Shown one piece after another: positions 16,744-62,639 of a stretch of DNA of 64,000 bases. The position numbers were made by a program, and so were the translations under genes. This stretch comes from an uncultured Enterobacteriaceae bacterium. Lineage in GTDB: Bacteria > Pseudomonadota > Gammaproteobacteria > Burkholderiales > SG8-39. The notes beneath the pieces were generated by a model that did not search any database, was not told where the DNA came from, and was given only the letters and a program-made list of their open reading frames with translations. Position 1 is the first letter of the stretch. Each line of letters starts with the position of its first letter. The DNA lies in the NCBI GenBank assembly GCA_964430565.1, contig CAYSFD010000016.1:78902-142901 (forward strand). The letters are read 5' to 3'.

Positions 16744-17718
16744 CTACTCCGCCCGCATGTTCCTTTCCTTGATGACGACCGCCCATTTTTTCAGCTCGGA
16801 TTCCAGTGTCGCCCTGAGCTCCTCCGGCGTGCTGCCGACGACTTCGATGCCGTCCTCCCCGAGCCTGCGCACGGTATCGGGCAAGCTCATCGCTTTCCGG
16901 AAGTGATCGTTCAGCGTAGCGATGATTTCGCGGTGGGTGTCCTTGGGCGCGACCAGCGCGAACCAGGCGACGAACTCGTAGCCCGGCAATCCGGCCTCGG
17001 CGATGGGCGGCACCCCGGGCAGCGCCGCCACCGGCTTCAGGCTGGTGACCCCGAGCGCCCTCAGGCGTCCGGCCTTGACGTAACCCGTCGCGCCGGCGAC
17101 CGAGGAAAACGCGACGCCGACCTCGCCGCTGATGGCCGCGAGCAGCGCGGGACCGCCGCCCTTGAACTGCACGGCAACCATGTTGGTCTTGGCGAGCTGG
17201 TTGAACAGCTCGCCGCCGATGTGCGGGTTGGTGCCGATACCGGAGGAACCATAGAAGAGTTCGCCGGGGCGGGACCGCGCAAGCTCGATCAGTTCGCCCA
17301 CGGTGTGCGCGGGGACCGAAGGATGCACGCTCAGGAACGAAGGCGCCGTCGACAGCAGCGATATCGGTGCGAAGTCCGTGAGCGGGTGGTAGGGCACCTT
17401 GCTGTACATCAGCGTATTCGTCACCATCGGCGTGGTATTGAGGAGCAGCGTGTAGCCGTCCGGGTCGGCGCGCGCCGCGGCCGTCGTACCGATGATGCCG
17501 GATGCCCCCGCGCGATTGTCCACCACGACCTGCTGGCCGAGCGACTTCGACACCGCCGGCGCGAGTATGCGCCCGTGCACGTCCACGCTGCCGCCCGGAG
17601 GAAACGGAACGATCAGGCGTATCGGGCGGTCAGGGTACTTCGCCGGCTGCGCCAAAGTCGTCTGGCCCAGTGACGCAAAGATCGCCATGAGGAGCACCCT
17701 CGTTACTGCCAGTCTCAT
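16744..17718 (-). CDS. Bug/TctC-family substrate-binding protein
   Basis: MRLAVTRVLLMAIFASLGQTTLAQPAKYPDRPIRLIVPFPPGGSVDVHGR. The ATG at 17718 is preceded by AAGGAAGGA. Confidence 0.9.
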   Translation of the reverse strand: MRLAVTRVLLMAIFASLGQTTLAQPAKYPDRPIRLIVPFPPGGSVDVHGRILAPAVSKSLGQQVVVDNRAGASGIIGTTAAARADPDGYTLLLNTTPMVTNTLMYSKVPYHPLTDFAPISLLSTAPSFLSVHPSVPAHTVGELIELARSRPGELFYGSSGIGTNPHIGGELFNQLAKTNMVAVQFKGGGPALLAAISGEVGVAFSSVAGATGYVKAGRLRALGVTSLKPVAALPGVPPIAEAGLPGYEFVAWFALVAPKDTHREIIATLNDHFRKAMSLPDTVRRLGEDGIEVVGSTPEELRATLESELKKWAVVIKERNMRAE

Positions 17719-30228: not shown

Positions 30229-31173
30229 ATGAAGCGCACTATCGCGGTTCTTCTGGCGCTGTTCACCCTGGCGGCCGGAGCGCAGGAATTTCCTTCCAAG
30301 CAGGTAAGACTCGTCGTGCCCTTCCCGCCGGGCGGGCCGCTCGACATCGCGGGCCGGCTGATCGGCAAGGAACTGCAGGACCGCTGGAGTCATCCCGTCA
30401 TCATCGAGAACAAGCCGGGCGGCACCATCGGCCCGGAATACGTCGTGAAGAGCGCGCCGGATGGCCACGTTCTGTTGATCATCAGCTCGACCCCGCTCGT
30501 GACGCTCCCGCACCTGCAGAAGGTGCCTTACGACGTGTTGAAGGACCTGGTCGGCGTCACTCAGACCACGCTCCTCACGTATGCGATGGTCGTTCATCCT
30601 GCAACCGGGATCGGTTCGATCCAGGAATTGATCGGCCGCGCGAAAAAGGACCCGGGCAAACTCAACTACGCGAGCGCCGGCAACGGATCCGGCCAGCATC
30701 TTTATTTCGAGTTGTTGAAGAACGCGGCGGACATGAACCTCATCCACGTTCCCTACAAGGGCGCGGCGCCGGCGCTCCAGGCGGTGCTCGGCGGCGAGCC
30801 CGGCATCATGATCGACGTCACCGTGACGGTGCTGCCGCACGTGAAAGCGGGGAAGCTGCGCGCCCTCATGGTCACGGGCAGCAAGCCGCTCGAGCAACTG
30901 CCGGGTGCGGTGCCGTTTGATTCGCTTTTCCCCGGCCTCGGCATCCCGGGATGGCACGGAATTTTCACCACTGGTGGAACGCCCAAGCCGGTCCTCGACA
31001 AACTCGCAGCCGACATCCGGCAGGTGCTGCAGATTCCGGCGGTCGCGAACCGCTTCCGTGAGCTGGGGATCGAGCCTTCCGGAGTGTCGGGAGATCAGTT
31101 CAACGAGATCGTCAGGCGCGACTCGGCCCGCTGGGGCGAGATCATCCGCAAGAACAATCTAAGGGCGGATTAG
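30229..31173 (+). CDS. Bug/TctC-family substrate-binding protein
   Basis: MKRTIAVLLALFTLAAGAQEFPSKQVRLVVPFPPGGPLDIAGR. The ATG at 30229 is preceded by GAGGAGGG. Confidence 0.9.
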   Translation: MKRTIAVLLALFTLAAGAQEFPSKQVRLVVPFPPGGPLDIAGRLIGKELQDRWSHPVIIENKPGGTIGPEYVVKSAPDGHVLLIISSTPLVTLPHLQKVPYDVLKDLVGVTQTTLLTYAMVVHPATGIGSIQELIGRAKKDPGKLNYASAGNGSGQHLYFELLKNAADMNLIHVPYKGAAPALQAVLGGEPGIMIDVTVTVLPHVKAGKLRALMVTGSKPLEQLPGAVPFDSLFPGLGIPGWHGIFTTGGTPKPVLDKLAADIRQVLQIPAVANRFRELGIEPSGVSGDQFNEIVRRDSARWGEIIRKNNLRAD

Positions 31174-32938: not shown

Positions 32939-33903
32939 TGTTCCGGGACGATGGCGTGCTTCCTGATGAAGGCCGCCCAGGCTTCGCGCTCCCGCTTCAT
33001 GGCCGCGGCCGCAAGCTCCGGCGTGTCGAATATCGGGATGTAGGCCTGTGCTTCGAGCTTCTCCGCGAGCTGCGGGGATTTCATCGCCTTGACGATCTCG
33101 ACGCTCATGCGCTGCACGATTGCCGGCGGCGTCCCCGTCGGCGCCACCACGCCGAAGAAGGAACTTCCGATCTCGACTCCCGGAAGGCCGGCTTCGGCCA
33201 ACGTGGGCGCGCCGGGAAGCGCGTTCGTGCGCTCGCTGACGGCGAGCGCGAGCGCTTTTCCGCCGCGGATATGAGGCAGCGCCGAGGCGAGATCGGCCAG
33301 CATGAATTTTATCTGGCCGCCAAGGAGGTCCTTGTAAGCCGGTCCCAGACCCTTGTAGGGAACATGAAGGAAGCGCGCGCCGCTCGCCTCTTCGAGCACC
33401 CGCACGCCGAGATAGGTCGCGCTGCCGATGCCGGCCGAGCCGAACGGGACGGTCCCCGGCTCGCGCTTACCGAGAGCGAGAAGATCGGCGAGCGATTTGG
33501 CCTGGACCGAGGGATGGATGCAGATGACGTAAGGGCTCACCACGCCGCGCGAGATCGCCACGAAGTCGCGCTCGGCGCTGTAGGGCAGATTCTTGTAAAG
33601 GCTCGGATTGATGATGAGCGATGGGCTCGCCGAGATGAGGAACGTATAGCCGTCGGGCCGAGCCTTCGCCGCCGCCTCGGCCCCGATGTTGCCGCTCGCG
33701 CCGGGCTTGTTGTCCACCACGAAGGGCTGCTTGAGCGCCTCGCTCAAGGCATGCGAGATCAGGCGGGCATAGATATCGGTGCCGCCCCCGGGCGAAGAGG
33801 GCACGATCACTCTCACCGAGCGCGTGGGCCAGGCTTCCTGCGCCATGATGGGCAGGGAAAAAAGCAGCGCGGCGGTGACGGTGACTCCAGTCGCGATTCG
33901 CAT
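32935..33903 (-). CDS. Bug/TctC-family substrate-binding protein
   Basis: Signal peptide, then VRVIVPSSPGGGTDIYAR and SAGIGSATYL. 4-nt overlap with the lactonase gene. Confidence 0.9.
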   Translation of the reverse strand: MRIATGVTVTAALLFSLPIMAQEAWPTRSVRVIVPSSPGGGTDIYARLISHALSEALKQPFVVDNKPGASGNIGAEAAAKARPDGYTFLISASPSLIINPSLYKNLPYSAERDFVAISRGVVSPYVICIHPSVQAKSLADLLALGKREPGTVPFGSAGIGSATYLGVRVLEEASGARFLHVPYKGLGPAYKDLLGGQIKFMLADLASALPHIRGGKALALAVSERTNALPGAPTLAEAGLPGVEIGSSFFGVVAPTGTPPAIVQRMSVEIVKAMKSPQLAEKLEAQAYIPIFDTPELAAAAMKREREAWAAFIRKHAIVPEQ

Positions 33904-34912: not shown

Positions 34913-35881
34913 TTACTCCACCCGCACCTGGTAGTCGCGAATGACTTTCGCCCATTTGTCGGACTCCGCGCGGGCGAAAGCGAGGAACTCCGCGGGCGCG
35001 CTGCCGACGACGTCGAAGCCCTGGGCGGCGAGCTTGCCGCGCACTTCCGGATCGGAGAGCGCCTTGGTCAGCTCGGCGTGCAGCCGCGCAACGATGTCCT
35101 TCGGTGTGCCGGCGGGCGCGAGCATTCCCACCCAGGATTGCGCGGCGAATCCCGGAAGCGACTCGGCTACCGTAGGCGTATCGGGAAGCTGAGGGATGCG
35201 GCGCGAGCTGCCGATCGCGAGCGCCTTGATGCGGCCCGCCTTCGCCTGCGGAATCGCCTGCGGCGCGGAAACGAACATGACGTTCACCTGGCCGCCAACC
35301 ATGTCGATCATCATCGGCGCGCCGCCCTTGTAGGGCACATGGGTCATTTCAATTCCGGTGCGGTTCGCAAACAGCAGGGCGTTCAAGTGGTTCGAGCTGC
35401 CGGCGCCCACCGTTGCATAGGTGACCTTTCCCGGGTTCGATTTTGCGTGGCTCACCAGCTCCGCGACCGTCGAGGGAGCGAAGTTGGTCGCCCCCACGAG
35501 CACCTGCGGCGAAGTGACGATGAGGCTCACGTGCTCGAAGGACTTGAACGGGTCGTAGCCGAGGTTCTTGTAGAGCAGATGGTTGACCGCGTGCGTGTCG
35601 AATACGAGAAGCACGGTGTGGCCGTCGGCGGGCGCTTTCGCCACCTCCGCCTGCCCGATCGAACCGCCCGCGCCGGCCCTGTTCTCGACCAGCAACGGGC
35701 GGCCGAGCCCGGCGGAATAACTCGGGCCGATGACCCGGGCGACGCCGTCAACGGTGCCGCCCGCCGGCCACGGAACGATCAGGCGGATCGGCTTGCTCGG
35801 ATAAGCTTGACCGAGAACAGCCGCCGGGACCAGCGAAGCGGCAAGCGCCGCTGCGAAGACAAGGCTACGGCTCATCGGCAT
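34913..35881 (-). CDS. Bug/TctC-family substrate-binding protein
   Basis: MPMSRSLVFAAALAASLVPAAVLGQAYPSKPIRLIVPWPAGGTVDGVAR. Confidence 0.9.
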   Translation of the reverse strand: MPMSRSLVFAAALAASLVPAAVLGQAYPSKPIRLIVPWPAGGTVDGVARVIGPSYSAGLGRPLLVENRAGAGGSIGQAEVAKAPADGHTVLLVFDTHAVNHLLYKNLGYDPFKSFEHVSLIVTSPQVLVGATNFAPSTVAELVSHAKSNPGKVTYATVGAGSSNHLNALLFANRTGIEMTHVPYKGGAPMMIDMVGGQVNVMFVSAPQAIPQAKAGRIKALAIGSSRRIPQLPDTPTVAESLPGFAAQSWVGMLAPAGTPKDIVARLHAELTKALSDPEVRGKLAAQGFDVVGSAPAEFLAFARAESDKWAKVIRDYQVRVE

Positions 35882-37902: not shown

Positions 37903-39138
37903 TCAGGAGCCGCGTGAAGCAAGCAGATCGGCGCCGATCTCGCTGACCGCTCGCACGCCGGATAGCTGCATCGCGCGCACCAGCTCGTCGCGCAGGATAT
38001 CCAGGGCGCGCGTCGCGCCGTCTTCCCCCGCGGCGCAGGCGCCGTACAGCGTAGCGCGGCCGAGCATGACGGCTTCCGCGCCGAGCGCAATCGCCTTCAC
38101 CACATCCACGCCGCGGCGCACGCCACCGTCCACCAGCACGCTCATCCTGCCTTTGACAGCGCGCACGATGGGCGGCAGCGCGTCGAGCGCGGCCACGGCC
38201 CCGTCGAGCTGGCGCCCGCCGTGATTGGACACGACCACCGCGTCGATTCCCATGGCGGCGAGCCGCTCGGCGTCGTCGGCGCGCAGGACGCCCTTCACCA
38301 GCATCTTGCGCGGCCAACGGTCGCGCATTTCCTTCAGGCCGTCCCAGTCGAAGTCCGCGTCCCAGAACTGCCCGACCGAGGAGGCGATCTCGGCGGTGCT
38401 TCTCGCCTCCGGCGCCAGGCCCATCACGTTTTCCAGCACCGGCATGCCGTAGCGCAGGAGCGAGAGCGCCCAGACGGGGCGCGAGGCGAAATCGAGCACG
38501 TTCCGCGGCGTGAAGCGGAAGCGGATCGCAAAATCGTTGCGGAAGTCGCGCTCGCGCTTGCCGCCGACCGGTACGTCCACGGTGACCATCAGCGCCTCGT
38601 AGCCGAGCCGCCGCGCGCGCTCGACCAGGCCCATCGTCATGTCGCGCTGGCGAAAGATGTAGGCCTGGAACCACAACCGCCCGCCCGCCTCGCGCGCGAT
38701 GCGCTCGATCGACGCGGTCGCCATGGTCGAGAGCGTATACGGGACTCCCGCCGCGGCGGCTGCGCGCGCGATGCCGACGTCGGCGAGCGGCCAGCCGAAA
38801 CCGATGCCTCCCGTGGGGCCGACCGCGATCGGAAGCTTCGAGCCCGTGCCGAGAATGTTCGTTTGCGTGGCGATGTGCGCGACGCCGGTCAGCATCTTCG
38901 GTGCGAGCCGCACGCGCTCGAAGGCGGCGCGGTTATCGCGCAGCGTCGTTTCGTCCTCGGCGGCGCCGTCGAAGAAATCAAACACCGCGCGCGGCAGGCG
39001 CCTTTTCGCGAGACGGCGCAGGTCCTCGATGTTCCACGCGCGCAGAAGCCGCGCGACCGCGCGCCGCGAAGCCGGACAGGAAGACGCCGCCGAAGCCGGA
39101 GATTCGGTGGCGCTGCGCAGTTCGCCCGCCGTCGTCAT
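37903..39138 (-). CDS. FMN-dependent alpha-hydroxy-acid dehydrogenase/oxidase (LldD/glycolate-oxidase family)
   Basis: RLPRAVFDFFDGAAEDETTLRDNRAAF, VVSNHGGRQLDG, VLVDGGVRRGVDVVKAIALGA. The ATG at 39138 overlaps the upstream Bug stop (ATGA). Confidence 0.88.
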   Translation of the reverse strand: MTTAGELRSATESPASAASSCPASRRAVARLLRAWNIEDLRRLAKRRLPRAVFDFFDGAAEDETTLRDNRAAFERVRLAPKMLTGVAHIATQTNILGTGSKLPIAVGPTGGIGFGWPLADVGIARAAAAAGVPYTLSTMATASIERIAREAGGRLWFQAYIFRQRDMTMGLVERARRLGYEALMVTVDVPVGGKRERDFRNDFAIRFRFTPRNVLDFASRPVWALSLLRYGMPVLENVMGLAPEARSTAEIASSVGQFWDADFDWDGLKEMRDRWPRKMLVKGVLRADDAERLAAMGIDAVVVSNHGGRQLDGAVAALDALPPIVRAVKGRMSVLVDGGVRRGVDVVKAIALGAEAVMLGRATLYGACAAGEDGATRALDILRDELVRAMQLSGVRAVSEIGADLLASRGS

Positions 39139-40103
39139 TCCGCTTTCACTCCCGAGGCCTTGATGACGCGCGCCCAACGCTCGTAGTCTTTCTTGAGAAA
39201 CGCGGAAAATTCGGCGGGCGTATCCGCGACGATCACGGCGCCCTGCGCCTTCATGGTCTCTTTCGTCTTCGGCCTGGCGAGGGACTTGCGCATTTCCTCG
39301 CTGAGACGATTGACGATAGGCGCCGGCGTTCCGGCCGGAGCGAGCAAGCCGACCCAAGGGGCGGTCTCCTCGAAGCCCGGAAAGCCCGCCTCCGCCATGG
39401 TGGGGACTCCCGGAAAATCGGGATGACGCACCGGCGTGCCGACCGAAATGACTTTCAGCTTCTTCGCAGCCACCTGGTCGGCGATGCCGACGATCGGATA
39501 GAACATGAAGGTCACGCGGCCGGCCATCACCTCGGCAAGCGCCGGACCGTTTCCCTTAAAGGGGACGTTGATCATCTTCGTGCCGGTCGCGTTCTCCAGC
39601 ATCGCACCGGCGAGATGCGTCGAGCCGCCGATGCCCGAGGTCCCGTAGCTCAGTTCACCGGGCTTCGCCTTGGCGAGCGCCACCAGCTCCTTCATGGTAT
39701 TGGCAGGAATCCCGGGGCTCGCCACGATCACCATCGGCAGCACCGCCGCATTGCACACCGGCGCGAAATCTTTGAACGGGTCGTACTTGGCCTTGGTCTC
39801 CGGCAGGATCGCGTTGACAAGGAGCGAAAGAGAGGAAAACAGCAGCGCGTAGCCGTCAGGAGCTGCATGCGCGACCGCTTCGGTGGCAATGATGGCGTTG
39901 GCACCGGGTCGGTTCTCTACAACGAAGGACTGGCCGAGCGACTGGGTCATGTCCGCCGCGACGATGCGCGCAATCACGTCGGTCGGCCCGCCTGCCCCAA
40001 AGCCGACGACGAACTTGACCGGCTTTGTCGGATAGCCCTGCGCCGCGGCGCTGCCGGCAAGCGCGCACAGCGCGGCGACGAGCGCCGCAAATGTCTTCTT
40101 CAT
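39135..40103 (-). CDS. Bug/TctC-family substrate-binding protein
   Basis: MKKTFAALVAALCALAGSAAAQGYPTKPVKFVVGFGAGGPTDVIAR. The ATG at 40103 is preceded by AAGGAGGAG. Confidence 0.9.
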   Translation of the reverse strand: MKKTFAALVAALCALAGSAAAQGYPTKPVKFVVGFGAGGPTDVIARIVAADMTQSLGQSFVVENRPGANAIIATEAVAHAAPDGYALLFSSLSLLVNAILPETKAKYDPFKDFAPVCNAAVLPMVIVASPGIPANTMKELVALAKAKPGELSYGTSGIGGSTHLAGAMLENATGTKMINVPFKGNGPALAEVMAGRVTFMFYPIVGIADQVAAKKLKVISVGTPVRHPDFPGVPTMAEAGFPGFEETAPWVGLLAPAGTPAPIVNRLSEEMRKSLARPKTKETMKAQGAVIVADTPAEFSAFLKKDYERWARVIKASGVKAE

Positions 40104-41012: not shown

Positions 41013-41981
41013 CTAATCGATCTTCAGACCTGTGTCTTTGATGATCTTCGCGTAGCGCACGACGTCGGCGCGCACCATCGCGGCGAACTCCTCCGGCGTG
41101 CGCGTCACAGCGCCGTCGGCGCCGACCTCGGCGAGCCGTGCCCACGTCTCCGGCGACTGCATCGCTTTCATGGTTTCCGCGTGCAGGCGGTTCACGATAG
41201 TGGGTGCGGTTCCGCCGGGCGCGAACACGCCGTACCAGGTCGTCACCTCGTAGCCCGGCACACCGGCTTCCGCCACCGTGGGCACATCGGGATACTCGGG
41301 CACGCGCTTTGAGCTCGACACGCCGAGCACCCGCATTCTCCCGGAGCGCACGTTGCCCGCCGAAGCAGGCGCGGTGTCGAAGGCCACCTGAACCTGCCCG
41401 GCGAGGAGATCCGCCATCGACTGGCCGGTACCCTTGTAGGGTACGTGCACGATATTCAGTCCCGCCATGCTCTTGAAGATCTCGCCCGCGAGGTGCGGCG
41501 TGCTGCCGTTGCCGGCGGACGGAAAACTGAGTTTGCCCGGTCGCTCTTTCGCGTAGGCGATCAGCTCCTTGATGGTATTCACCGGCAAGGACGGGTGGAC
41601 GACGACGAAGTGCGGCACCGAGGCGGTAAGCGTGATCGGAGCGAAGTCCTTGATCACGTCGTATTGCAGGTTCGGAAAGAGGCTCGACGCGATCGCGTTC
41701 ACCGACACGTGGCCCATCATGATCGTGTAGCCGTCGGCCGGGGATTTCGCGACCGCCGCTGCGGCCACAGTGCCGGTCGCGCCGGGCCGGTTCTCGATCA
41801 CCACCGGCTGACCGAGATTCTCCGAGAGCTTGGGCGAAATGATGCGCGCGACCACGTCGGTGCCGCCTCCGGGCGGGAAACCGACGACCATGCGGATCGG
41901 GCGGGTCGGATACGCCTGCGAAAGAGCGGTCCCGCAAGGCAGCGCAAGCGCTGCCAGAAACAGAATCAGATATTTTTTCAT
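41013..41981 (-). CDS. Bug/TctC-family substrate-binding protein
   Basis: MKKYLILFLAALALPCGTALSQAYPTRPIRMVVGFPPGGGTDVVAR. Confidence 0.9.
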   Translation of the reverse strand: MKKYLILFLAALALPCGTALSQAYPTRPIRMVVGFPPGGGTDVVARIISPKLSENLGQPVVIENRPGATGTVAAAAVAKSPADGYTIMMGHVSVNAIASSLFPNLQYDVIKDFAPITLTASVPHFVVVHPSLPVNTIKELIAYAKERPGKLSFPSAGNGSTPHLAGEIFKSMAGLNIVHVPYKGTGQSMADLLAGQVQVAFDTAPASAGNVRSGRMRVLGVSSSKRVPEYPDVPTVAEAGVPGYEVTTWYGVFAPGGTAPTIVNRLHAETMKAMQSPETWARLAEVGADGAVTRTPEEFAAMVRADVVRYAKIIKDTGLKID

Positions 41982-50855: not shown

Positions 50856-51842
50856 ATGCCACGACTGAAGACGCTCCAATCCGTGACTCTGAGCCTAGTG
50901 CTCGCGCTGCCCGCCGCCGCACTGTATACGACGCATGCAGCGGCCCAGGCCTATCCCAGCAAGCCGGTGCGGCTTATCATCCCGTTCCCTCCGGGCGGGA
51001 GCAACGACGTGGTCGGGCGCATGATCGCGATCCAGCTCTCCGAGCGGCTGGGAAGGGGGATCGTCGCCGACAACCAGGGCGGCGCGGGCGGGATCATCGG
51101 CAGCGAAGCGGCGGCGAGATCGACGCCCGACGGCTATACGCTGCTCCTGATCTCGGTTGCCCACGCCTTCGGCAGCTCGATGTACAAGCTGCCGTACGAC
51201 CCGATCGGCGCCTTCGCGCCGGTGGCGATGCTCGGCACCGGGCCGGTTGTGCTCTGCGTCAATCCCAAGCTGCCCGTGGATTCGCTGAAGGAGCTGATCG
51301 CGCTCGCGAAGGAAAAGCCTGGGACGCTGAACTACGCCACGGCCGGTGTCGGAAGCTTCCAGCACCTGTCCAGCGCGCTGTTCAAGCTGCAGTCGGGACT
51401 GGACATCGTGCATATCCCGTTCAAGGGCGGCGGACCGGCGATGATGGACGTGATCGCCGGCAACACCCAGATCACGATCGGCTCGCTGATCCAGATGCTG
51501 CCGCACATCAAGAGCGGGCGGCTGCGCGCGCTCGGTGTCGGAAGCGCCAAGCGCGTGCCTGCGCTCCCCGACCTGCCGACCATCTCGGAGGCGGGGGTCC
51601 CGGGTTACGAGGCGACCAACTGGTGGGGCATCGTCGCGCCGGCCGGAACGCCGCGTCCCGTCATCGAGCGGCTGCACAAGGAGCTCTCGGTGATCCTCGC
51701 CTCGGCTGAAACGAAAAAGCGTTTCGAATCCGAAGGCGGGGAAGCGGTGCAGATGAGCCCGGAGGAGTTCGGCCGGTTCATCGTTTCGGAGACGGCGAAA
51801 TGGGCGAAGGTGGTGAAAGAAGCCGGGATCAAGCCGGAGTAG
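50856..51842 (+). CDS. Bug/TctC-family substrate-binding protein
   Basis: Signal peptide, then AYPSKPVRLIIPFPPGGSNDVVGR and AGVGSFQHL. SD is AGGAGGAAG. Confidence 0.9.
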   Translation: MPRLKTLQSVTLSLVLALPAAALYTTHAAAQAYPSKPVRLIIPFPPGGSNDVVGRMIAIQLSERLGRGIVADNQGGAGGIIGSEAAARSTPDGYTLLLISVAHAFGSSMYKLPYDPIGAFAPVAMLGTGPVVLCVNPKLPVDSLKELIALAKEKPGTLNYATAGVGSFQHLSSALFKLQSGLDIVHIPFKGGGPAMMDVIAGNTQITIGSLIQMLPHIKSGRLRALGVGSAKRVPALPDLPTISEAGVPGYEATNWWGIVAPAGTPRPVIERLHKELSVILASAETKKRFESEGGEAVQMSPEEFGRFIVSETAKWAKVVKEAGIKPE

Positions 51843-51921: not shown

Positions 51922-53619
51922 GTGCGGACTGCCGTCCTCACCCGGTTGCTCGCCGGCTACTGCGCTGCGATTGCCTGCTCGCTCGGTCAGGCGACCGCCC
52001 AGGAGCCCGCCACGGACGAGAAAGCTCCGCTCTCCGCGGAGGCTGCGCCGTCTTCCACAGGGAAAATCCCGTCCTTCGCCGAGCTCGAGGCGGCCGGGGC
52101 CGTCATCGGCGAGGTACGGATCGACGTCCGCAACATCTTTGATCTTTCGGACGAGAAGGAAAACGGCGTCCTCTACCAGGCCGCGAACGCGATTCACATT
52201 CAAACGCGCGAGTGGGTCGTCAGGCGCCAGTTGTTGTTCAAGCCCGGCGAGCGCGTCTCGGTCCGCCTCATCGAAGAGACGCAGCGCCTGATGCGGTTGA
52301 GCCGGACTTTTTACGATGTCAGCATCGCGCCGATCGGCTACCGCGACGGCGTGGTCGATATCGAAGTCAGGACGCGCGATAACTGGACGCTGCATCTCGG
52401 CGGGAGCGCCAGCCGCGTAGGGGGCGCCAACAAAACCGAGGCGGCGGTGTCGGACCGCAACCTCCTCGGCACCGGCGTTCTCTTCGGTGCCAGCAGCGCC
52501 AGGGATGCCGATCGCAGCGGCACCGAGTACCACTTTTCCGCGCCCCACCTTCTCGACGGCTGGACCACGATCGCCTACTCGAAGAGCCGGCTGAGCGACG
52601 GCGAGAGCATGGCGGCATCGATCATCCGGCCGTTCTACGCTCTGGACACGCGCTGGGCGGCTGGATTCTCGACCTCCACGGGTACTCGCATCGACTCCCA
52701 ATTCAGCAACGGGGAGAAGTCCGCCCAGTTTCGCCACGAGCAGGAAAGTGCCGTGGCATTCGGAGGCTGGTCCGAGGGCCTGGTGAACGGCTGGACGCAC
52801 CGCTATTCAGCGGGCTTCAGCTACCAGAAGGACAGCTACAAGGTCGAGCCGGGCCTTCCCCTTCCGGCTCCCGATCCATTTCCTCTGGATCAGACGCTCG
52901 CTGCGCCCTTTTTGCGCTACGAGCTCGTGCACGACGACTACGAGGAGGTCAAGAACCGGAACCTGATCGAGCGTCCGGAGTACTTCGCGATGGGAACCCA
53001 ATCCAGCGTTCAGCTGGGCCGCACATTAACGAGCCTAGGCTCGACGCAAAACCTTTGGCTCTACTCCGCCAGCGCGAGCGACGGCTTCCGGCTCCCATCG
53101 AACCGGATCTTGCTCGGTTCGGCCTCGGTCTCCGGGCAGACCGGTTACGCGCCGCTCGAACGGCAACTGGCGAGCGGCTCGATTCAATTCTATGGCCGCT
53201 CGGACGACCGGGACCGGACGTTTGTCTCTCTCGCCGGCAACGCCCTCACGGACCCTAACCCTGCCAGCCAACTGACGCTCGGGGGCGACACGGGCTTGCG
53301 CGGATATCCGCGGAACTACCAGACCGGCGACCGCCGCGTGCTGCTCAACATCGAGGAACGCGTCTATACGGACTGGTACCCATTCCGCCTGTTCCGCGTG
53401 GGGGGCGCGGTGTTCTACGACTTGGGCCGGGCCTGGGACGGCCCCGGCGAAAGTCCCTCGAGCGCGCACTGGGCGAGCGACGTCGGCTTCGGCCTGCGCA
53501 TTCAGAGCACGCGCTCATCCTCGGGGAACGTTCTGCACGTCGACCTCGCCTTCCCCCTGAATCACGATCCGAACATCAAATCGTTTCAGTTCCTGGTCTT
53601 GACCAAGGTCTCGTTTTGA
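51922..53619 (+). CDS. Omp85/BamA-TamA-family outer-membrane protein with a single POTRA-like domain
   Basis: Signal peptide; POTRA-like IGEVRIDVRNIFD...VVRRQLLFKPGERVS...YDVSIAPIGYRDGVVDIEVRTRDNWTL; beta-barrel-like alternating pattern; LTLGGDTGLRGYP motif; C-terminal aromatic residue (…LTKVSF). GTG start. Confidence 0.75.
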   Translation: MRTAVLTRLLAGYCAAIACSLGQATAQEPATDEKAPLSAEAAPSSTGKIPSFAELEAAGAVIGEVRIDVRNIFDLSDEKENGVLYQAANAIHIQTREWVVRRQLLFKPGERVSVRLIEETQRLMRLSRTFYDVSIAPIGYRDGVVDIEVRTRDNWTLHLGGSASRVGGANKTEAAVSDRNLLGTGVLFGASSARDADRSGTEYHFSAPHLLDGWTTIAYSKSRLSDGESMAASIIRPFYALDTRWAAGFSTSTGTRIDSQFSNGEKSAQFRHEQESAVAFGGWSEGLVNGWTHRYSAGFSYQKDSYKVEPGLPLPAPDPFPLDQTLAAPFLRYELVHDDYEEVKNRNLIERPEYFAMGTQSSVQLGRTLTSLGSTQNLWLYSASASDGFRLPSNRILLGSASVSGQTGYAPLERQLASGSIQFYGRSDDRDRTFVSLAGNALTDPNPASQLTLGGDTGLRGYPRNYQTGDRRVLLNIEERVYTDWYPFRLFRVGGAVFYDLGRAWDGPGESPSSAHWASDVGFGLRIQSTRSSSGNVLHVDLAFPLNHDPNIKSFQFLVLTKVSF

Positions 53620-53656
53620 GGCGTTGCGGGTTCTCGACGCTTTTACGTCGCGCCAC

Positions 53657-56470
53657 TTAGAACGAGCGCCCGATCCGCAAATAGCCGACTTTTCCTCCCG
53701 GCGCCTCGAAACCTTTTGCGAAGCCCAGGCGGAACTGCGCGCCGAACAGATAGCCCGCGCGCATTTCCGACAGCAACTCGAGACCCGCGCTTCTGTAGTA
53801 GTGCTGCGGGTCGCCGCTCTCCCAAGCCGCACCGATATCGAAGAAGACGTTCATCGAGAGCCGGTTCAGCCCCGCCGGCGGCACCATGAAAGCCCGGTCG
53901 ACATCGGCGATCGTCGTGCGCCACTCGACCGTACCGAGCCGGGAGTGGTGGCCCGTCAGCACCGATTCGCCGCTCAGGTAGCCACGCAGCGGAAACTCGC
54001 GCTGGTTGAGCACGGGCAGCGCAAACGTTTCCTCGGAGAAGCTGCCGCCGAGCTGAATCGGCTCGGCTTCGGGCTGCGCATGCGCCTCGTTCCAACGTAG
54101 CGCAAGCACCGTCTTGCCTGCCGGCAGATACACGCGCCAGTCGGCGCGATAGAAATTGCCCGAGTAGGCGCCGCGCAGGCGATTAGAGGTTTCGGCGTAG
54201 AGCTGCAACTGCTGTCCCTGGCTCGGCCCTTCGGACAGCAACTGCTGCCTGCGCGTGTCTACTCCGGCGAGCAGTCCCAGCACGCGTTCGTCGTACGCCG
54301 CCGTGGTTCCGAGCGTCAAGTCGTGCTGAGTTTCCTGGTCGAGCGCGGCGCCAAGCCCCCAGTAGTAACGGGCGTCGAATGAGAGATTGCGCCACAGCGA
54401 CACCCATTGCGCCGTCTCGTTGATGGCGTAGGCCTTGATTTCCTCGCCCGTGCTCTTTTGGTCATTGGTGACCTTCGCCTTGACCGTCATGAACCGGTTG
54501 AAAAGCAAGCCATGACGGTTGTCGTAAACATAGGAGGCGCTCCCCAGCGTTTCATTCTGCGTGAATTCATACATCGGCGCGAGCACGTACTGGTGCAGGC
54601 CCAGCGCATCCTGCCCGAAAGTCTGCACGCCCAGCGCGAAAGCGCCGTCGGCGATGTAGCCCGCCGGGAACCACGAGCGCGGCAGGAGCGAGGACCACGG
54701 CGCGTAGTCCCGGTCGGGGAGCGGACGCTCGGCAGCCGGTACGGATGAGGCCCCGAATTCCACTGCCGCAGCCGCTTCGCGGCGCTCGACCGGCGCATCC
54801 GGCAGGCGATGCAGCCGCAGCACGTCGCCGTCGGCCTCGATCGTCGTGAGCAACATTTCACCGGCGACCGGCGCGCTGATCTCGCGGATGCCGTTCAGCG
54901 CCTCCGACCAGCGCGCGAGGCGCCGCTCGCTGCGCCGCCAAGACCAGACGTTGGAAACCTTGCCGTAGTCGGCGACGAAGTAGATGTCCTCCGAAGCATC
55001 GCCGAACCTCGGAGAGTGTTTGATCGCCTCGTCGGAAAGCAGAAGCGACGCCTTGCCGTCGGCGATTTGAACGAGCGACCAGCGCCCCTCGCGCAGGCTC
55101 GTCACGACGACCTTCCCGCCTCCCGCCGCAAGCCCAGTGAGGGCCTCACCCGGAGCGGCGCGATAGAGCGAGCGCTCCAGCGCGCCCTCTTGATTCACGA
55201 TGACGACTTCCGCCTCGCCGTTGACGACCCGGATCGCGGCGATGCGGCCGTCATCGAGCGGCGCGGTAAAGCGGAATCGCCCACAATCGGTGAGCCGGTC
55301 AAGACCGCCGCCGGCGCCAAGCCGGTACAGGTCGTAGTAATAGTTGTAGTTTCCGCAGATCTCGAGTTTCGAGAGCAGCAGCTCGCCGCGCGGGGAGGTT
55401 GAGAGCCGGGTCAGTGCCTCGACCTCGCGGACCGGCCGAGCCTCCCGGCCCTTCTCCTGCCGCATGAGTTTCAGCCGCGTATAGCCGTCCCCCTGCACGT
55501 ACCAGCGCTCGCCCTCGCGCGTGAGCAAGGGACTGGTAATCGAATACGCGCGGGCAAGTATTTCCCCGCCTCGATCGGGCCGCTTGACCGGATCCTGCAT
55601 CTTGGCGGCGAAGCGCACGCGCAGCCAGTTCTCGTACTCCAGCCACAGCACGTCCTGCCACTTGCCGGTAATCGCCGCGGTGTTGCTGTGCACGCGAAAC
55701 GGGAAGAAGTCGCCGCTGTAGTTCTCGACGTAATCGACGATCGCCTTCTGTCCGTAGCGCTCGCCGAGGAACAGGAAAAAATAACTGCCGTAGAGATAGT
55801 CGCGGTTGTGCGGAAAACCGCGCCCGTCGGCGTGGATCTCGCGAAGCGAAATCGGCCCCCGGCCGACTTCCGCGCGCATCATGCCCTCGAACTCGCTCTG
55901 GCCCAGGCGCCCCCAGCCCTTGCTCGAGTCGGATTCCGCGTAGACGGCCAGACCTTCCTTCACCCATCCCGGCCCCCACACGTTGGGCAGGGTGTTGGGG
56001 AAGAACAGGTAGAACCATGGAGGCGAGCGTCCGAAGATGCGGCGCATGGCAAGCGGCGCGCCCCTCGCCTTGTCCATGTGCACGACGTGGGTAAACTCGT
56101 GGGTCAGCACCAGCTCCAGCCACTCCCGGTTTTGCAGCAGCTCGCCCGAGTCGGGCGGCGAGAGCACGATGCCCATGTAGTTGAACGGCAGGGGCGAGGC
56201 GAGCCCGTTGGCGAGATCGAGCGAATCGACCACCACGATCTGCGTTCGCGTCTCGGGTTTCCATTTAAGCCAGTCCGTGATCCGCGGATACACCGTCTCG
56301 GCGACCTCGGCGACGGTGCGGGCCTGCGTGCGGTAGGGTTCGGCGAAATGCACCGAGAAATTGGGCGTGTCCAATGTTCGCCAGCGTAGCGAAGGATCGA
56401 CGAACTGCGCATGCGCCGCAAACCCGAAAAGGAGCGGCGCGACAGCCAGGACGCGCAAGCAGCGCTTCAT
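53657..56470 (-). CDS. outer-membrane fusion protein: gluzincin-type metallopeptidase, TolB/PD40-like propeller and C-terminal Omp85-like beta-barrel
   Basis: Signal peptide MKRCLRVLAVAPLLFGFAAHAQ (ATG at 56470). LTHEFTHVVH (HExxH) with a downstream WVKEGLAVYAES. Middle region has PD40-like segments (DIYFVADYGKVSNVWSW). The last ~330 aa have beta-strand periodicity, an FPLRGY motif and a terminal …YLRIGRSF. Confidence 0.7.
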   Translation of the reverse strand: MKRCLRVLAVAPLLFGFAAHAQFVDPSLRWRTLDTPNFSVHFAEPYRTQARTVAEVAETVYPRITDWLKWKPETRTQIVVVDSLDLANGLASPLPFNYMGIVLSPPDSGELLQNREWLELVLTHEFTHVVHMDKARGAPLAMRRIFGRSPPWFYLFFPNTLPNVWGPGWVKEGLAVYAESDSSKGWGRLGQSEFEGMMRAEVGRGPISLREIHADGRGFPHNRDYLYGSYFFLFLGERYGQKAIVDYVENYSGDFFPFRVHSNTAAITGKWQDVLWLEYENWLRVRFAAKMQDPVKRPDRGGEILARAYSITSPLLTREGERWYVQGDGYTRLKLMRQEKGREARPVREVEALTRLSTSPRGELLLSKLEICGNYNYYYDLYRLGAGGGLDRLTDCGRFRFTAPLDDGRIAAIRVVNGEAEVVIVNQEGALERSLYRAAPGEALTGLAAGGGKVVVTSLREGRWSLVQIADGKASLLLSDEAIKHSPRFGDASEDIYFVADYGKVSNVWSWRRSERRLARWSEALNGIREISAPVAGEMLLTTIEADGDVLRLHRLPDAPVERREAAAAVEFGASSVPAAERPLPDRDYAPWSSLLPRSWFPAGYIADGAFALGVQTFGQDALGLHQYVLAPMYEFTQNETLGSASYVYDNRHGLLFNRFMTVKAKVTNDQKSTGEEIKAYAINETAQWVSLWRNLSFDARYYWGLGAALDQETQHDLTLGTTAAYDERVLGLLAGVDTRRQQLLSEGPSQGQQLQLYAETSNRLRGAYSGNFYRADWRVYLPAGKTVLALRWNEAHAQPEAEPIQLGGSFSEETFALPVLNQREFPLRGYLSGESVLTGHHSRLGTVEWRTTIADVDRAFMVPPAGLNRLSMNVFFDIGAAWESGDPQHYYRSAGLELLSEMRAGYLFGAQFRLGFAKGFEAPGGKVGYLRIGRSF

Positions 56471-56495
56471 GCGCGCCCCACCGGGCGTCGCAAAG

Positions 56496-58394
<1,899 letters not shown>

Positions 58395-58403
58395 GGCTTG
58401 AGT

Positions 58404-60155
58404 CTATGCTGCGAGCTCCGCCTCGGCCGGTGGCTTGAGCGGCAGCCAGACCGTGAACTTGGTGCCGACGCCGACCTGCGATTCGACGTCGATGCGGCCG
58501 CCGTGCTGCTCGACGATCTTGTAGGAAATCGAGAGACCTAACCCGGTGCCCTTGCCGATCTCCTTGGTGCTGAAAAACGGATCGAAGATCTTCGGCAGCA
58601 CCTCCGGCGCGATGCCTTTGCCGTCATCCGCGATCTCGACCGCCACGCCGCCTTCCGCGCCGCGCGTGGTCAGCATGATCGTTCCGCGCTCGTTTGCCAT
58701 CGCCTGCACCGCATTGGTGATGAGGTTCAAAAATACCTGGTTGATTTGCGAGGGCGAACAGACGATGGCAGGAATATCTCCGAGCTCCCGCTTGACGAGG
58801 ACTGATTTCAACAGATGTTTGGCCAGCAGCAGCGTGCTCGCGAGACCTTCGTTCAGGTTGAAGCTGGTGACCTTGCTGCGATCCAGTCGGCTGAAGTCCT
58901 TGAGATTGCCAACGATCTCGGCCATCTGGCCGGTGCCGTGCAGGCCGTCCTTCACCAGAGCGCTCAATTCCTGCATCACGTTTTGCTGTCTGAGCTTCGC
59001 GACGCGCGCGGTGACCAGCGCGAACTGGCGCGAAAGCTCCTCGGCGTTGGCATTGGCGCCGGCCTGCAGCAGCGCGAGCAGCGTTTCGCTTTGCTCGACC
59101 GCGTCGCCCAGCTCAGGCAGCTTGTCGGCAACGGCGCCGAGGCTGTTCTTGACGTAGGCGAGCGGCGTGTTGATTTCATGCGCGACGCCCGCCACCATCT
59201 GCCCCAGAGAAGACATTTTTTCCGACTGAATCAATTGCGCCTCGGATTCCTTGAGGTGCTTCAAGGCTTCCGACAGCTCGCGCGTGCGTTCCTGGACACG
59301 GTGCTCCAGGCTGATGTTGGCGGCCCTGATCTTGGCGCCGAACCAGGCGAGCAGTATCAGGAGCGCGCCGGCGTAGGCGATGAGATAGACACGGAAACGT
59401 TCCTTCTCCAGCAGCGTCCCCTCGAGCTCGCGGTTGTACGAGAACGTCATGGCGTCCAGCCGCGGGCCGGGCGTCAGAGACGCCAGTTTCGCCAGCAGAT
59501 CCTGCTCGGCCGGCTTGTGTTTGAGCAGCGCCTCCCCGGCGGCGAGCAACTGCGTTAACGCAGCGCGCCCCGCCTCGGGCACAGCAGCGCTTTGCAACTG
59601 GGCAAGCGAGGCCTCCAAGTCCTTGCGTTGCGCGGCCAGGGCCAGCCAATAGTATTGAGCGGCGCCGACGGCGAGGCGGCTTGCCGCCGCTTCCAGCTCC
59701 GGCTTGCGCGGTTTCGACTCCAGGGCGTGCGCGCGGAGCTCGGCGGCTGCGACCAGCGTCGCCTGCAAGGCGGTCTTGGCGCCGGAGTTCTCGGTCTTGA
59801 ATCGTTCGACGAGTTCGGCTTTTTCGCGAATCGCTCTGACCAGCTCGGGCAGGCCGGTGGCGAGCGTCGGACTCTTCGTGCGCGTCGCGGCATCGTCCAG
59901 CGCCTGCAGGGCCCTTTCGGCGGCAGCGGTGCGGTTGATCGCCAACTCGGAGGCGCCCAACTCAAGGCGTGCGCGCAGCACATCGACGTCCCAGCGATCG
60001 TCGATCTCCCTCAATTCGCGCAGCGGACCCAGGATTTCGTTTTGCTCGCGAAGATCGAGCGCCTGGGTTTTGTCGTAAAGAAACGCGAGAACCCCCACCA
60101 GCACCAGCGAGGCGAGGCCCAGCAACAGGTTTTGCAGCACTTCAGATCTGTTCAT
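58404..60155 (-). CDS. sensor histidine kinase with a large helical extracytoplasmic domain
   Basis: TM1 LLLGLASLVLVGVLAFLY and TM2 VYLIAYAGALLILLAWFG flank ~250 aa of Ala/Leu/Glu-rich helices. H-box MVAGVAHEINTPL, N-box NLITNAVQA, G-boxes DDGKGI and GTGLGLSISY. Start at the ATG at 60155 (alternative 60164); the track gives 60194. Confidence 0.85.
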   Translation of the reverse strand: MNRSEVLQNLLLGLASLVLVGVLAFLYDKTQALDLREQNEILGPLRELREIDDRWDVDVLRARLELGASELAINRTAAAERALQALDDAATRTKSPTLATGLPELVRAIREKAELVERFKTENSGAKTALQATLVAAAELRAHALESKPRKPELEAAASRLAVGAAQYYWLALAAQRKDLEASLAQLQSAAVPEAGRAALTQLLAAGEALLKHKPAEQDLLAKLASLTPGPRLDAMTFSYNRELEGTLLEKERFRVYLIAYAGALLILLAWFGAKIRAANISLEHRVQERTRELSEALKHLKESEAQLIQSEKMSSLGQMVAGVAHEINTPLAYVKNSLGAVADKLPELGDAVEQSETLLALLQAGANANAEELSRQFALVTARVAKLRQQNVMQELSALVKDGLHGTGQMAEIVGNLKDFSRLDRSKVTSFNLNEGLASTLLLAKHLLKSVLVKRELGDIPAIVCSPSQINQVFLNLITNAVQAMANERGTIMLTTRGAEGGVAVEIADDGKGIAPEVLPKIFDPFFSTKEIGKGTGLGLSISYKIVEQHGGRIDVESQVGVGTKFTVWLPLKPPAEAELAA

Positions 60156-60385
60156 GTTTCTCATTCGCCCTGAAACGCGCCTGGGCGCCGGCACATCATC
60201 GTGCAGGGTTGTTCAATCGGCGCGGATTGCCAGCTCGTCGCTGGATCGGACTCGACGAGATCCCCAACTCGCCATCGGCAGCCCGACGTCGGGATTGCGG
60301 GTCGCTCCGCGACGCGTTACAGCATGATGCGGTCCCCGGGCTTGTCAGGTCAAGCGTGCCGTCAGCGGCTCTTGATGACGAGGGG

Positions 60386-61876
60386 TCAGCCGGTTTCGCG
60401 CTTGTCGCGCAGCGCGGGCGCGATCATGACAGCAAGGATCAGTACGCTGCCGATCACGAACGCGAGGCTCATCGGTCGCGTGAAGAACACGGTGGGGTCG
60501 CCGCGCGAGAGCAGCATCGCGCGGCGCAGGTACTCTTCCATCAGCGGCCCGAGAACGAAGCCGAGGATCAGGGGCGCGGGCTCGCACTCGAGCTTGACCA
60601 GCACGTAGCCGATCGCGCCGACGAGCGCGCACAGATAGACGTCCACCGCGTTGTTGTTCACGGCGTAGTTGCCGACGCAGCAGAACATGATGATCGAGGG
60701 AAACAGCCACCGGTACGGGACACGCAGCAGGCTCACCCAGATCCCCACGAGCGGCAGGTTGAGGACAACGAGCAGCAGATTGCCGATCCACATGCTGGCG
60801 ATGATTCCCCAGAAGAGCTCGGGGTTCGAGGTCATCACTTGCGGTCCGGGCGTGATGCCCTGCACGATCATGGCGCCCATCATCAGCGCCATGATGGCGC
60901 TCGAGGGAATGCCGAGCGTGAGCATCGGAATGAAATTGGTCTGCGCCGCGGCGTTGTTGGCCGCTTCGGGCGCAGCCACGCCCTCGATCGCCCCCTTGCC
61001 GAAGCGCGACGGATCCTTGGCGATCTTCTTCTCGAGCATGTAGGACACAAAGGAGGACAGCGCCGGCCCCGTCCCCGGCAGCACGCCGAACACGGAGCCG
61101 ACCGCCGTCCCGCGCACCGTCGGCCAGGTCGAGTCGCGGATGTCCTGGCGGCTCGGCATGAGATTGGATATCTTGCGCGTGAATACTTCGCGGGTTTCTC
61201 GGGAGGCGAGGTTGCTCACCACTTCCGCCACCGCGAAAAGGCCCACCACGATCACCGTGAAACCGATGCCGTCGTAGAGCTCCAGGACGCCGAAGGTGTA
61301 GCGCGCCATGCCCGAATTGACGTCGGCGCCGACCAGGCCGAGCAAGAGGCCCACGACGACCATGCAGAACCCCTTGACCATGTCGCCCTGGGTGAGGACT
61401 GCTGCCGCGACGAGCGCCATCAGCATCAGCGAAAAATATTCGGCCGCGCCGAACATCAGCGCCCACTCGGCGAGCAGGGGACCCGCGAGCGCGATCAGCA
61501 GCGTCCCCACACAGCCGGCGAAAAACGACGCCAGCGCCGCGACCGCGAGCGCCGGCCCCGCGCGACCCTGGCGCGCCATCTGGTAGCCGTCGAGACAGGT
61601 GACCGCGGAGGCCGTCTCGCCGGGCAGGTTGACGAGAATCGAAGTGGTCGAGCCCCCGTATTGCGCCCCGTAATAGATCCCGGCGAGCATGATGAGCGCC
61701 GCGACCGGCGGCAGCGTAAACGTGAGCGGAAACAGCATCCCGATCGCCACCAGCGGCCCGATTCCCGGCAGCACGCCGATCAGCGTGCCGAGCAGTACGC
61801 CCGCGAAGCAGTAACCGAGATTCTGCAGCGAGAACGCGACGCCGAAGCCGAAGGCGAGGTTGTTCAGGATATCCAC
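60386..61876 (-). CDS. tctA: tripartite tricarboxylate transporter large permease TctA
   Basis: 496 aa, about 12 TM. GVLPGIGP, YGGSTTSILVN(L)PGE and GVLPGTGP are duplicated TctA motifs. Confidence 0.9.
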   Translation of the reverse strand: MDILNNLAFGFGVAFSLQNLGYCFAGVLLGTLIGVLPGIGPLVAIGMLFPLTFTLPPVAALIMLAGIYYGAQYGGSTTSILVNLPGETASAVTCLDGYQMARQGRAGPALAVAALASFFAGCVGTLLIALAGPLLAEWALMFGAAEYFSLMLMALVAAAVLTQGDMVKGFCMVVVGLLLGLVGADVNSGMARYTFGVLELYDGIGFTVIVVGLFAVAEVVSNLASRETREVFTRKISNLMPSRQDIRDSTWPTVRGTAVGSVFGVLPGTGPALSSFVSYMLEKKIAKDPSRFGKGAIEGVAAPEAANNAAAQTNFIPMLTLGIPSSAIMALMMGAMIVQGITPGPQVMTSNPELFWGIIASMWIGNLLLVVLNLPLVGIWVSLLRVPYRWLFPSIIMFCCVGNYAVNNNAVDVYLCALVGAIGYVLVKLECEPAPLILGFVLGPLMEEYLRRAMLLSRGDPTVFFTRPMSLAFVIGSVLILAVMIAPALRDKRETG

Positions 61877-62328
61877 AGGTATCCCGCGATCAGCGGATAG
61901 GGGATCTTAAGCACGTACAGCAGCACGACCACCGCGAAAGCGCTCATGAGCGCGGTGAGGACGAGCACCTCTTTCAGGCGAAACTCGCGCCCGCCTGCAG
62001 CGCTCACCAGAAACACCGCGACCAGCGCCGGGACGAGACCAAGCCGCGCCATGAGAAAGCCGAACAGCACGATGGCGAGCGCGATCAGCAAAAGCGGCTT
62101 CCAGCCCCACTCGCCCTTCACCTTCTCGCCCGAGCGGATGCCGCGCACCGTCACCCAGGCGCCGAGCAGGATGAGAATGCCGCCGAGGACGGTGGGGAAC
62201 CAGGCCGGGCCCATGCGCATCGCATTGCCCATCGGGTAATCGCGGGCGACGACCACGGCGAGGACGCCGATCGCGATGAACAGCAGCCCGGCGAGGAAAT
62301 CCCTGTTGTTGCGCAGGTCGAGATTCAT
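61864..62328 (-). CDS. tctB: tripartite tricarboxylate transporter small permease TctB
   Basis: 154 aa from the ATG at 62328. Four TM (RDFLAGLLFIAIGVLAVVVARDYP…). Overlaps tctA by 13 nt. Confidence 0.8.
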   Translation of the reverse strand: MNLDLRNNRDFLAGLLFIAIGVLAVVVARDYPMGNAMRMGPAWFPTVLGGILILLGAWVTVRGIRSGEKVKGEWGWKPLLLIALAIVLFGFLMARLGLVPALVAVFLVSAAGGREFRLKEVLVLTALMSAFAVVVLLYVLKIPYPLIAGYLWIS

Positions 62329-62639
62329 GGCATTTAGCGGAGCCTGAGGAAGAAGCTCGGTTCGACAATCATGCGCACGCGACCCAGCGCCGGTCAAGGG
62401 AGCGCCTGACGCCCGATCGCCATTTGGGCGCCATGCCGTCAATCGCTCTGATGCGGTCCCCATTTCGGCCGATACCAATTGCGTGGATGGTCGCCCCTTG
62501 CTGCTGGCCGGGCGCTGGGCTAGCAGTCTCTGATCAGCGGGTCTAGAATGTCATCCGTTTTTGTAGGTCGGGGGTTCCGGCACCGAGTCCCGCCCGGTTG
62601 AGCGGGGTGTGGTTAGCTCATTGACTCAGGGAGAGAAAG

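Follow-up and report, generated by a model that had tools for sequence, protein, structure and literature searches.

A histidine kinase paired with a receiver-fused Hanks kinase, and its probably recent juxtaposition to a predicted protease-propeller-Omp85 protein in an uncultured Burkholderiales bacterium

Four neighbouring genes at positions 51922–60155 of a 64,000-nucleotide (nt) stretch of DNA from an uncultured Burkholderiales bacterium (assembly GCA_964430565.1, contig CAYSFD010000016.1, positions 78,902 to 142,901) are the subject of this study; the whole stretch is called the window below. The locus is taken up by four long open reading frames (ORFs), and all four genes, with the domains that a preliminary description from the letters alone had given them, are present. 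Three lie on the minus strand and encode a sensor histidine kinase (HK), a Hanks-type serine/threonine kinase (STK) followed by two receiver (REC) domains, here called STK-REC-REC, and a 937-amino-acid (aa) exported outer-membrane protein, here called P937, towards which the fourth gene, for an Omp85-family protein, converges. We consider it probable that the kinase pair and P937 are separate units, each conserved by itself, that only lately came to lie side by side in the window's lineage, P937 normally standing alone. The genes and their domains are as follows.

51922–53619, plus strand: Omp85-family protein, 565 aa, with a signal peptide and a PF01103 match
53657–56470, minus strand: P937 (its residues 1–21 are a signal peptide)
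53660–54682, minus strand: 16-strand Omp85 barrel of P937, about residues 597–937, with LRGY at 828–831 and a C-terminal Phe
54773–55573, minus strand: six-bladed TolB-like propeller of P937, about residues 300–566
55601–56407, minus strand: clan-MA zinc-protease-like domain of P937, residues 22–290, with HEFTH at 124–128 and E172
56496–58394, minus strand: STK-REC-REC, 632 aa
56625–56987, minus strand: REC2, about residues 470–590 (Pfam Response_reg)
57045–57407, minus strand: REC1, about residues 330–450 (Pfam Response_reg)
57612–58367, minus strand: Pkinase domain of STK-REC-REC, residues 10–261 (Pfam, 200 bits)
58404–60155, minus strand: sensor HK, 583 aa
58434–59207, minus strand: HisKA and HATPase_c of the HK, residues 317–574 (2e-7 and 1.9e-29, respectively)
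59391–60056, minus strand: DAHL domain of the HK, residues 34–255 (Pfam PF19443, E 5.4e-29)

Direct reading of the junctions gave 9 nt between HK and STK, 25 nt between STK and P937, and 37 nt between the stop codons of the convergent Omp85 and P937 genes, in agreement with the preliminary description. Terminator-like sites were absent between HK, STK and P937, and their regional count equalled the shuffle expectation; the three genes are probably co-transcribed in the window. The ATG of P937 at 56470 is preceded by a Shine-Dalgarno-like GGTGGGG, and a longer reading from a TTG at 56590 was rejected because the homologues all align from the ATG.

In the Pfam analysis the HK reads as a transmembrane segment, a periplasmic DAHL domain, a second transmembrane segment, HisKA and HATPase_c, and the extracytoplasmic sensor of about 250 aa noted earlier can now be named as the DAHL domain. 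A DAHL domain is also found in the Campylobacter jejuni chemoreceptor Tlp10, which binds several classes of ligand, including malate (cited in PMC9796306); in Tlp10 the domain serves a chemoreceptor, whereas in the window it feeds a histidine kinase. The second protein was compared with 28 homologues of 69–93% identity. Its Gly loop (G17/G19/G22), K39, E61, H134-R135-D136, N141 and D154-F155-G156 are invariant, as are P180 and E181 of the APE motif, with A179 at least 90% conserved, which bears out the earlier view of a catalytically complete Hanks kinase. REC1 was correctly seen to hold a full DD/D/T/K set (D338, D339, D381, T409 and K432, all invariant), and REC2, in which an Asp had also been noticed, has an invariant D518, an invariant T546, and D475 and K569 at 90% conservation or more, while the second acidic position varies. 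REC1 is closest to the receivers of RpfG/NosR-type regulators. Databases already contain proteins of this architecture, labelled generically as "protein kinase", "response regulator" and the like, and a plasmid search returned no full-length STK-REC-REC.

To place the kinase pair in context we used a metagenome scan that gave 80 loci with STK-REC-REC relatives of 48–94% identity. Of the loci whose upstream sequence reaches 1.9 kb or more, 57 in all, 56 have a DAHL HK directly ahead of STK-REC-REC, so His-Asp control of the STK appears to be a conserved design, as the preliminary description had supposed when it placed a eukaryote-like kinase under such control. Upstream sequence of 7 kb or more is available for 29 loci, and 18 of these carry a five-gene Liv-type ABC importer ahead of the HK, its components scoring best to LivK, LivH, LivM, LivG and LivF, all below the equivalog cut-offs. 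The conserved module is a Liv-type ABC importer, a DAHL HK and an STK-REC-REC in that order, and the window's HK/STK copy has lost this LivKHMGF-like importer context; the 64 kb hold no Liv-type transporter and no further HK or REC gene. Loci without the transporter have mixed content upstream of the HK, judged from crude ORF calls, and the gene after the STK is usually convergent and unrelated. In most cases the pair closes a cluster of seven genes (Peripla_BP_6, two permeases, two ATPases, HK and STK-REC-REC), which is located as follows.

Locus L051, 294–8908: seven-gene cluster; also in L057, L059, L073, L074, L080, L081, L097, L100–L112, L125 and L132

Since the ancestral partner of the pair is a LivKHMGF-type ABC importer, the solute that the pair responds to most likely resembles an amino acid or is an organic acid. 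A ligand would bind the periplasmic DAHL domain and lead the membrane-bound HK to autophosphorylate, the cytoplasmic STK protein would take up the phosphoryl group on REC1 Asp381 and perhaps also on REC2 Asp518, and phosphorylation of the receivers would switch the Hanks kinase on or off, turning a His-Asp signal into Ser/Thr phosphorylation of targets. Phosphotransfer, kinase control and the class of ligand are our inferences from the domains, conserved residues and gene adjacency given above. RpfG-type HD-GYP proteins, CheB and PleD likewise have a receiver that governs a fused enzyme, but in the window the output is a Hanks kinase and it lies N-terminal to two receivers. The reviewed cross-talk between STKs and two-component systems (DosR, CovR, VraR) involves a separate kinase that phosphorylates a response regulator (PMC12471899); these systems and the window pair both join His-Asp with Ser/Thr signalling, but in opposite directions, with the STK acting on the response regulator in the former and the HK acting on a receiver-fused STK in the latter. 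Rice CHARK, with CHASE, Ser/Thr kinase and receiver domains (PMC7814049), is a eukaryotic analogue of a receiver-fused STK. Literature searches found no description of receiver-fused Hanks kinases, and the two reviews of cross-talk consulted make no mention of them.

P937 on its own matched nothing in Pfam, NCBIfam or PDB sequence searches, and alignments of its homologues were required to describe it. The family gave 427 matches in 90% clusters and 854 cluster representatives at 50% identity (E ≤ 1e-30), and it extends to Vibrio and Methylococcales; among the matches listed, nearly all full-length relatives are about 920–1000 aa long and align end to end. Members with a source name are all called "hypothetical protein" except for one "surface antigen Omp85-like protein", and a scan of viral contigs found no relatives. 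Across 103 sequences, down to 25% identity, H124, E125, H128 and E172 are invariant, and 90% conservation or more is seen for L828, R829, G830 and Y831. An AlphaFold2 model built from the same 103-sequence alignment reached a predicted local distance difference test (pLDDT) score of 91.2 and a predicted template modelling (pTM) score of 0.91. A first model from 29 close homologues had a poor protease domain (pLDDT 66), which the larger alignment cured, and already showed exactly 16 barrel strands over residues 601–935. The closest genomic relative of P937 (locus L020, 10001–12797) aligns in two pieces, to query residues 4–290 and 286–937, pointing to a frameshift or a misassembly in the contig of this metagenome-assembled genome (MAG).

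The three parts of P937 named in the preliminary description are all borne out by the alignments and the predicted structure. The C-terminal barrel covers residues 599–933 and is read as 16 strands if E626–630 and E633–635 are taken as one, with LRGY, the Omp85 loop-6 signature, in a long loop (805–841) between strands 787–798 and 842–861; Foldseek matched the model to the BamA, TamA, FhaC and Sam50 barrels with probability 1.0. P937 itself has no PF01103 match, while two of its homologues score above the cut-off of 24 (P0098 with 29.8 bits, P0045 with 31.8 bits), and 7 of 49 diverse members match at E ≤ 0.01. POTRA models found no match in P937, and the region before the barrel is the propeller, in which about 25 strands over residues 303–565 make up six blades. 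The family profile matches TolB at E 1.1e-29, PD40 repeats are found in 22 of the 49 diverse members, and Foldseek aligned the model with TolB at a root-mean-square deviation of 3.0 Å over 230 columns, with the tricorn protease (1k32) as the top match. At the N-terminus, the invariant residues of the HEFTH...E gluzincin signature sit on two helices of the model (the HExxH helix 117–133 and the Glu helix 168–179) within an alpha/beta protease-like domain. This domain alone matches Peptidase_MA_2 in 8 of 20 sequences, at best with 2.3e-5 and below the gathering score, and others match BSP, M61, DUF2268 and M48, also below gathering scores; these are zinc-peptidase or predicted zinc-protease families. 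A PDB profile search found no sequence relative of the domain, and the fold searches did not name its fold, as barrel and propeller matches filled the lists and a viral library gave propellers only. Taken from sequence and model, the N-terminus of P937 is a predicted, divergent clan-MA zinc-protease domain.

Whether P937 belongs with the kinase pair was judged from a genome scan that gave 50 P937 loci of 54–82% identity, all in uncultured Burkholderiales-type MAGs, together with the kinase loci above. STK-REC-REC precedes P937 in one of the 36 P937 loci with at least 2.2 kb upstream (L020, with a P937 of 82% identity), and P937 follows STK-REC-REC in one of the 43 kinase loci whose downstream sequence is 3 kb or longer (L056, with a kinase of 93% identity). 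Both have the window's gene order and a P937 that is 82–88% identical to that of the window, and because these two exceptions are close relatives of the window, we regard the three-gene "operon" as a recent juxtaposition. The genetic link between kinase and protease drawn in the preliminary description is therefore confined to the window and its close relatives, and the proposed operon for a kinase-controlled surface protease did not hold up when gene neighbourhoods were compared. In 52 of the 53 Burkholderiales loci covered by a generic hidden Markov model search, no REC or HK ORF lay closer to P937 than 2.5 kb; other P937 neighbourhoods hold TctC genes, a thiamine pyrophosphate (TPP) enzyme and TbpB-like lipoproteins. 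In the window the four genes are flanked by TctC (50856–51842) on one side and by TctA and TctB (60386–62478) on the other, which are Bug-type transport genes typical of Burkholderiales. Locus L055 reads TctB-TctA-[TPP enzyme]-P937-TctC...Lactamase_B-HpcH, which is the window's order without the HK/STK pair and with the TPP-enzyme gene in the place of the window's HK and STK genes, and we therefore conclude that the pair moved into this spot in a shallow lineage, by insertion or rearrangement. A second, divergent TctA-like gene (34–38% identity) lies between TctA and HK in L056 (3101–4102), L020 (4361–5674) and L090 (2007–3014); it is missing from the window, so the TctA-HK junction has been rearranged more than once. 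In locus L054 (747–10730) a P937 homologue of 62% identity lies between two TbpB_B_D lipoprotein genes with a Slam-like SlipAM/TPR_Slam translocon gene nearby, a context that may point to some connection with the handling of surface lipoproteins.

Several points weigh against this explanation or limit it. The gaps of 9 and 25 nt and the lack of a terminator-like site between the genes make joint expression of P937 and the signalling genes probable here, and a local regulatory link is possible. The zinc binding and topology of P937 and the phosphotransfer by the HK are all predictions. Lastly, a sample of eight distant P937 homologues (25–38% identity), picked blind to context, has phosphorelay genes directly adjoining P937 in four cases, each of a different kind:

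Locus L136, Vibrio nigripulchritudo plasmid pA, NC_015156.1, 164868–173143: response regulator and HK upstream on the same strand as a full-length P937 homologue of 27% identity
Distant homologue: adjoined by a REC-TPR protein and a HATPase protein
Methylococcales MAG: P937 homologue adjoined by REC-PAS-GGDEF-EAL and CHASE8-REC-Hpt proteins
Distant homologue: Hpt-HD-GYP protein 40 nt upstream on the same strand

The Vibrio homologue is annotated as hypothetical and has an M66 metalloprotease gene just downstream on the opposite strand. The neighbours of the other four are Mla-like, ArgA-like, PNPase/porin and a PilJ-domain protein, and downstream of one distant homologue (locus L137, 9026–14880) we saw genes for a PQQ-propeller protein and for Hcp and PAAR of a type VI secretion system. 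The background in Burkholderiales flanks is about 0.2 REC/HK ORFs per 10 kb, and the chance of at least four in eight is about 0.005–0.06 at a background of 0.1–0.2 per locus. This hints that the P937 family may often be under two-component control.

An explanation that gives these neighbours full weight would have P937-type proteins as a widespread class of envelope proteases, habitually under phosphorelay control, with lineages recruiting different two-component, Hpt and cyclic di-GMP modules, the window as one independent instance, and the pair as a route from a nutrient signal to Ser/Thr phosphorylation; we regard this as unlikely, while giving it some room. Also unlikely is the dedicated three-gene module of the preliminary description, in which the STK, itself under phosphorelay control, would direct an outer-membrane protease that remodels the envelope or cuts surface proteins. 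The shared strand, the short gaps free of terminator-like sites, the gene order repeated in L020 and L056, and the four distant homologues beside other phosphorelay genes would all fit such a module, but the sample of eight is small and its chance value can reach 0.06, and in the window's own clade the pair is missing from 35 of 36 P937 loci, P937 from 42 of 43 STK loci, and any REC or HK ORF from nearly all Burkholderiales P937 surroundings. Moreover, the kinase pair has another conserved partner in the ABC transporter, and it is hard to see how a kinase in the cytoplasm could act on an exported protein except through transcription, while the STK carries no DNA-binding domain. A third proposal sees in the cluster a defence island and in the STK a kinase that acts against phages, like those of PD-T4-6, MADS6 or BREX PglW; it draws on PADLOC matches to PD-T4-6 models (up to 3.8e-94) and mad6 (2e-72) and on NCBIfam matches to MAD6 and PglW. 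These matches span only the generic kinase domain (residues 8–295), where any Hanks kinase would score in this way, and the NCBIfam scores are all far below the curated cut-offs; the HK, P937 and the 565-aa Omp85 protein have no PADLOC match, and the fixed position next to an HK and a nutrient ABC transporter over 48–94% identity is the synteny of a housekeeping-like gene and not of an island. We rejected the defence-system proposal on these grounds and consider it very improbable.

A further alternative concerns P937 itself, whose protease and propeller could be passengers that reach the cell surface by passing through the barrel or alongside it, in a type V-like process. Heinz and Lithgow raised this for enzyme-Omp85 fusions by analogy with an early model of PlpD (PMC4104836), and the FhaC match places the barrel in one superfamily with the TpsB translocators. 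However, PlpD turned out to keep its enzyme domain in the periplasm, although secretion had at first been assumed, and the N-terminal or POTRA domains of all studied Omp85 proteins are periplasmic and have never been found outside (PMC11116518). A folded six-bladed propeller with a protease domain of about 270 residues would be unlikely cargo, TolB-like propellers are periplasmic, and the pTM of the model indicates N-terminal domains fixed relative to the barrel. We find surface passengers improbable, and by analogy with the studied Omp85 N-terminal domains, the PlpD enzyme included, the P937 protease probably faces the periplasm and not the cell surface; the "surface-tethered" protease of the preliminary description is not supported. 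In this topology P937 would be exported by Sec, inserted by BAM through its C-terminal ...GRSF signal and anchored by the 16-strand barrel, with the propeller and the zinc-metalloprotease domain most probably hanging in the periplasm. The propeller may gate or recruit substrates, as in tricorn, prolyl-oligopeptidase (POP) enzymes or TolB, and the HExxH...E site would cleave envelope proteins. Beyond the modelled fold and the invariant catalytic residues, the topology, activity and substrates of P937 are put forward here as predictions.

The propeller-barrel part of P937 has a precedent, as Heinz and Lithgow catalogued propeller-Omp85 fusions in 2014 as "WD40-Omp85" and likened them to a BamA-BamB fusion (PMC4104836). 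In these proteins, as in P937, a TolB-like propeller takes the place of POTRA domains before the Omp85 barrel, and the absence of POTRA is what defines the non-POTRA WD40-Omp85 subgroup to which P937 corresponds. For this cluster the available text of that article speaks of the propeller only: the word "peptidase" is absent from it, its single "protease" concerns another matter, and its "Metallo" group carries PF00149, a different domain from the P937 protease (PMC4104836). Against that description, the P937 family adds an N-terminal clan-MA domain with an invariant HExxH...E, and a universal, catalytically intact predicted zinc-protease domain appears to be a new observation for the WD40-Omp85 subfamily, within the limits of that text. 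The statement that the locus matched no described system was only half right, given the 2014 catalogue of WD40-Omp85 proteins. PlpD, a patatin-Omp85 protein, and P937 both carry an enzyme domain N-terminal to a 16-strand Omp85 barrel, and the PlpD enzyme acts on envelope components from the periplasm (PMC11116518). PlpD consists of a lipase domain and one POTRA before its barrel, whereas P937 has a predicted metalloprotease and a propeller, with no POTRA detected. Zinc metalloproteases also work at Omp85 machines, as BepA does with BamA, and in tricorn, POP and DPP-IV a propeller filters or recruits the substrates of a protease; BepA, an M48 enzyme with TPR repeats, is soluble and separate from the barrel, and tricorn and POP are cytoplasmic serine proteases. 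P937 differs from all of these in having every part in one outer-membrane chain and is reminiscent of BamA, BamB and BepA combined, or of a propeller-gated protease, a likeness of architecture only.

The convergent 565-aa Omp85 protein matches PF01103 with 29.8 bits against a cut-off of 24 and, weakly, the BamA of F. nucleatum, and no POTRA model matched it, although the preliminary description had given it one POTRA. Its residues 94–217 align, well below the cut-off, to positions 334–459 of a 741-position BamA model, a stretch that, going by the layout of BamA, we read as the final POTRA together with the first part of the barrel. This neighbour, which the preliminary description had counted with the locus, is indeed present, but its association is patchy, as it accompanies P937 in 5 of 38 loci and is absent from L020 and L056. 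A recent duplication linking it to the P937 barrel was rejected, the two having only loop-6 and strand motifs in common (BLASTP E 0.045).

The nearest relatives of all the locus proteins are from uncultured soil Burkholderiales. The window holds at least nine TctC (Bug-family) solute-receptor paralogues within 1492–51842, an expansion typical of Burkholderiales; examples are given below.

16747–17637: TctC paralogue
30289–31170: TctC paralogue
32941–33831: TctC paralogue
34916–35803: TctC paralogue
39138–40034: TctC paralogue
41022–41912: TctC paralogue
50856–51842: TctC paralogue, beside the locus

An Arg/Asp/His-rich ORF of 643 aa on the plus strand (59969–61900), antisense to the start of the HK and to TctA, looks like a spurious high-GC antisense ORF and not a gene. 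The gap of about 230 nt between TctA and HK contains a weak sigma-70-like match (60324–60353, minus strand; TTGACC, 18 nt, CATCAT), but the region has two such matches against 1.2 expected by chance, and for that reason we do not take it as evidence of a promoter.

Read as two conserved units that came together recently, the locus draws attention to two abundant protein families. With an HK that is constantly paired with a receiver-fused Hanks kinase, His-Asp signalling would be hard-wired directly to Ser/Thr signalling, and the Liv-type importer beside the pair offers an experimental handle on the ligand and the targets. P937 is a candidate envelope quality-control or processing protease, and it would unite in one protein three activities that the BAM machinery draws from BamA, BamB and BepA.

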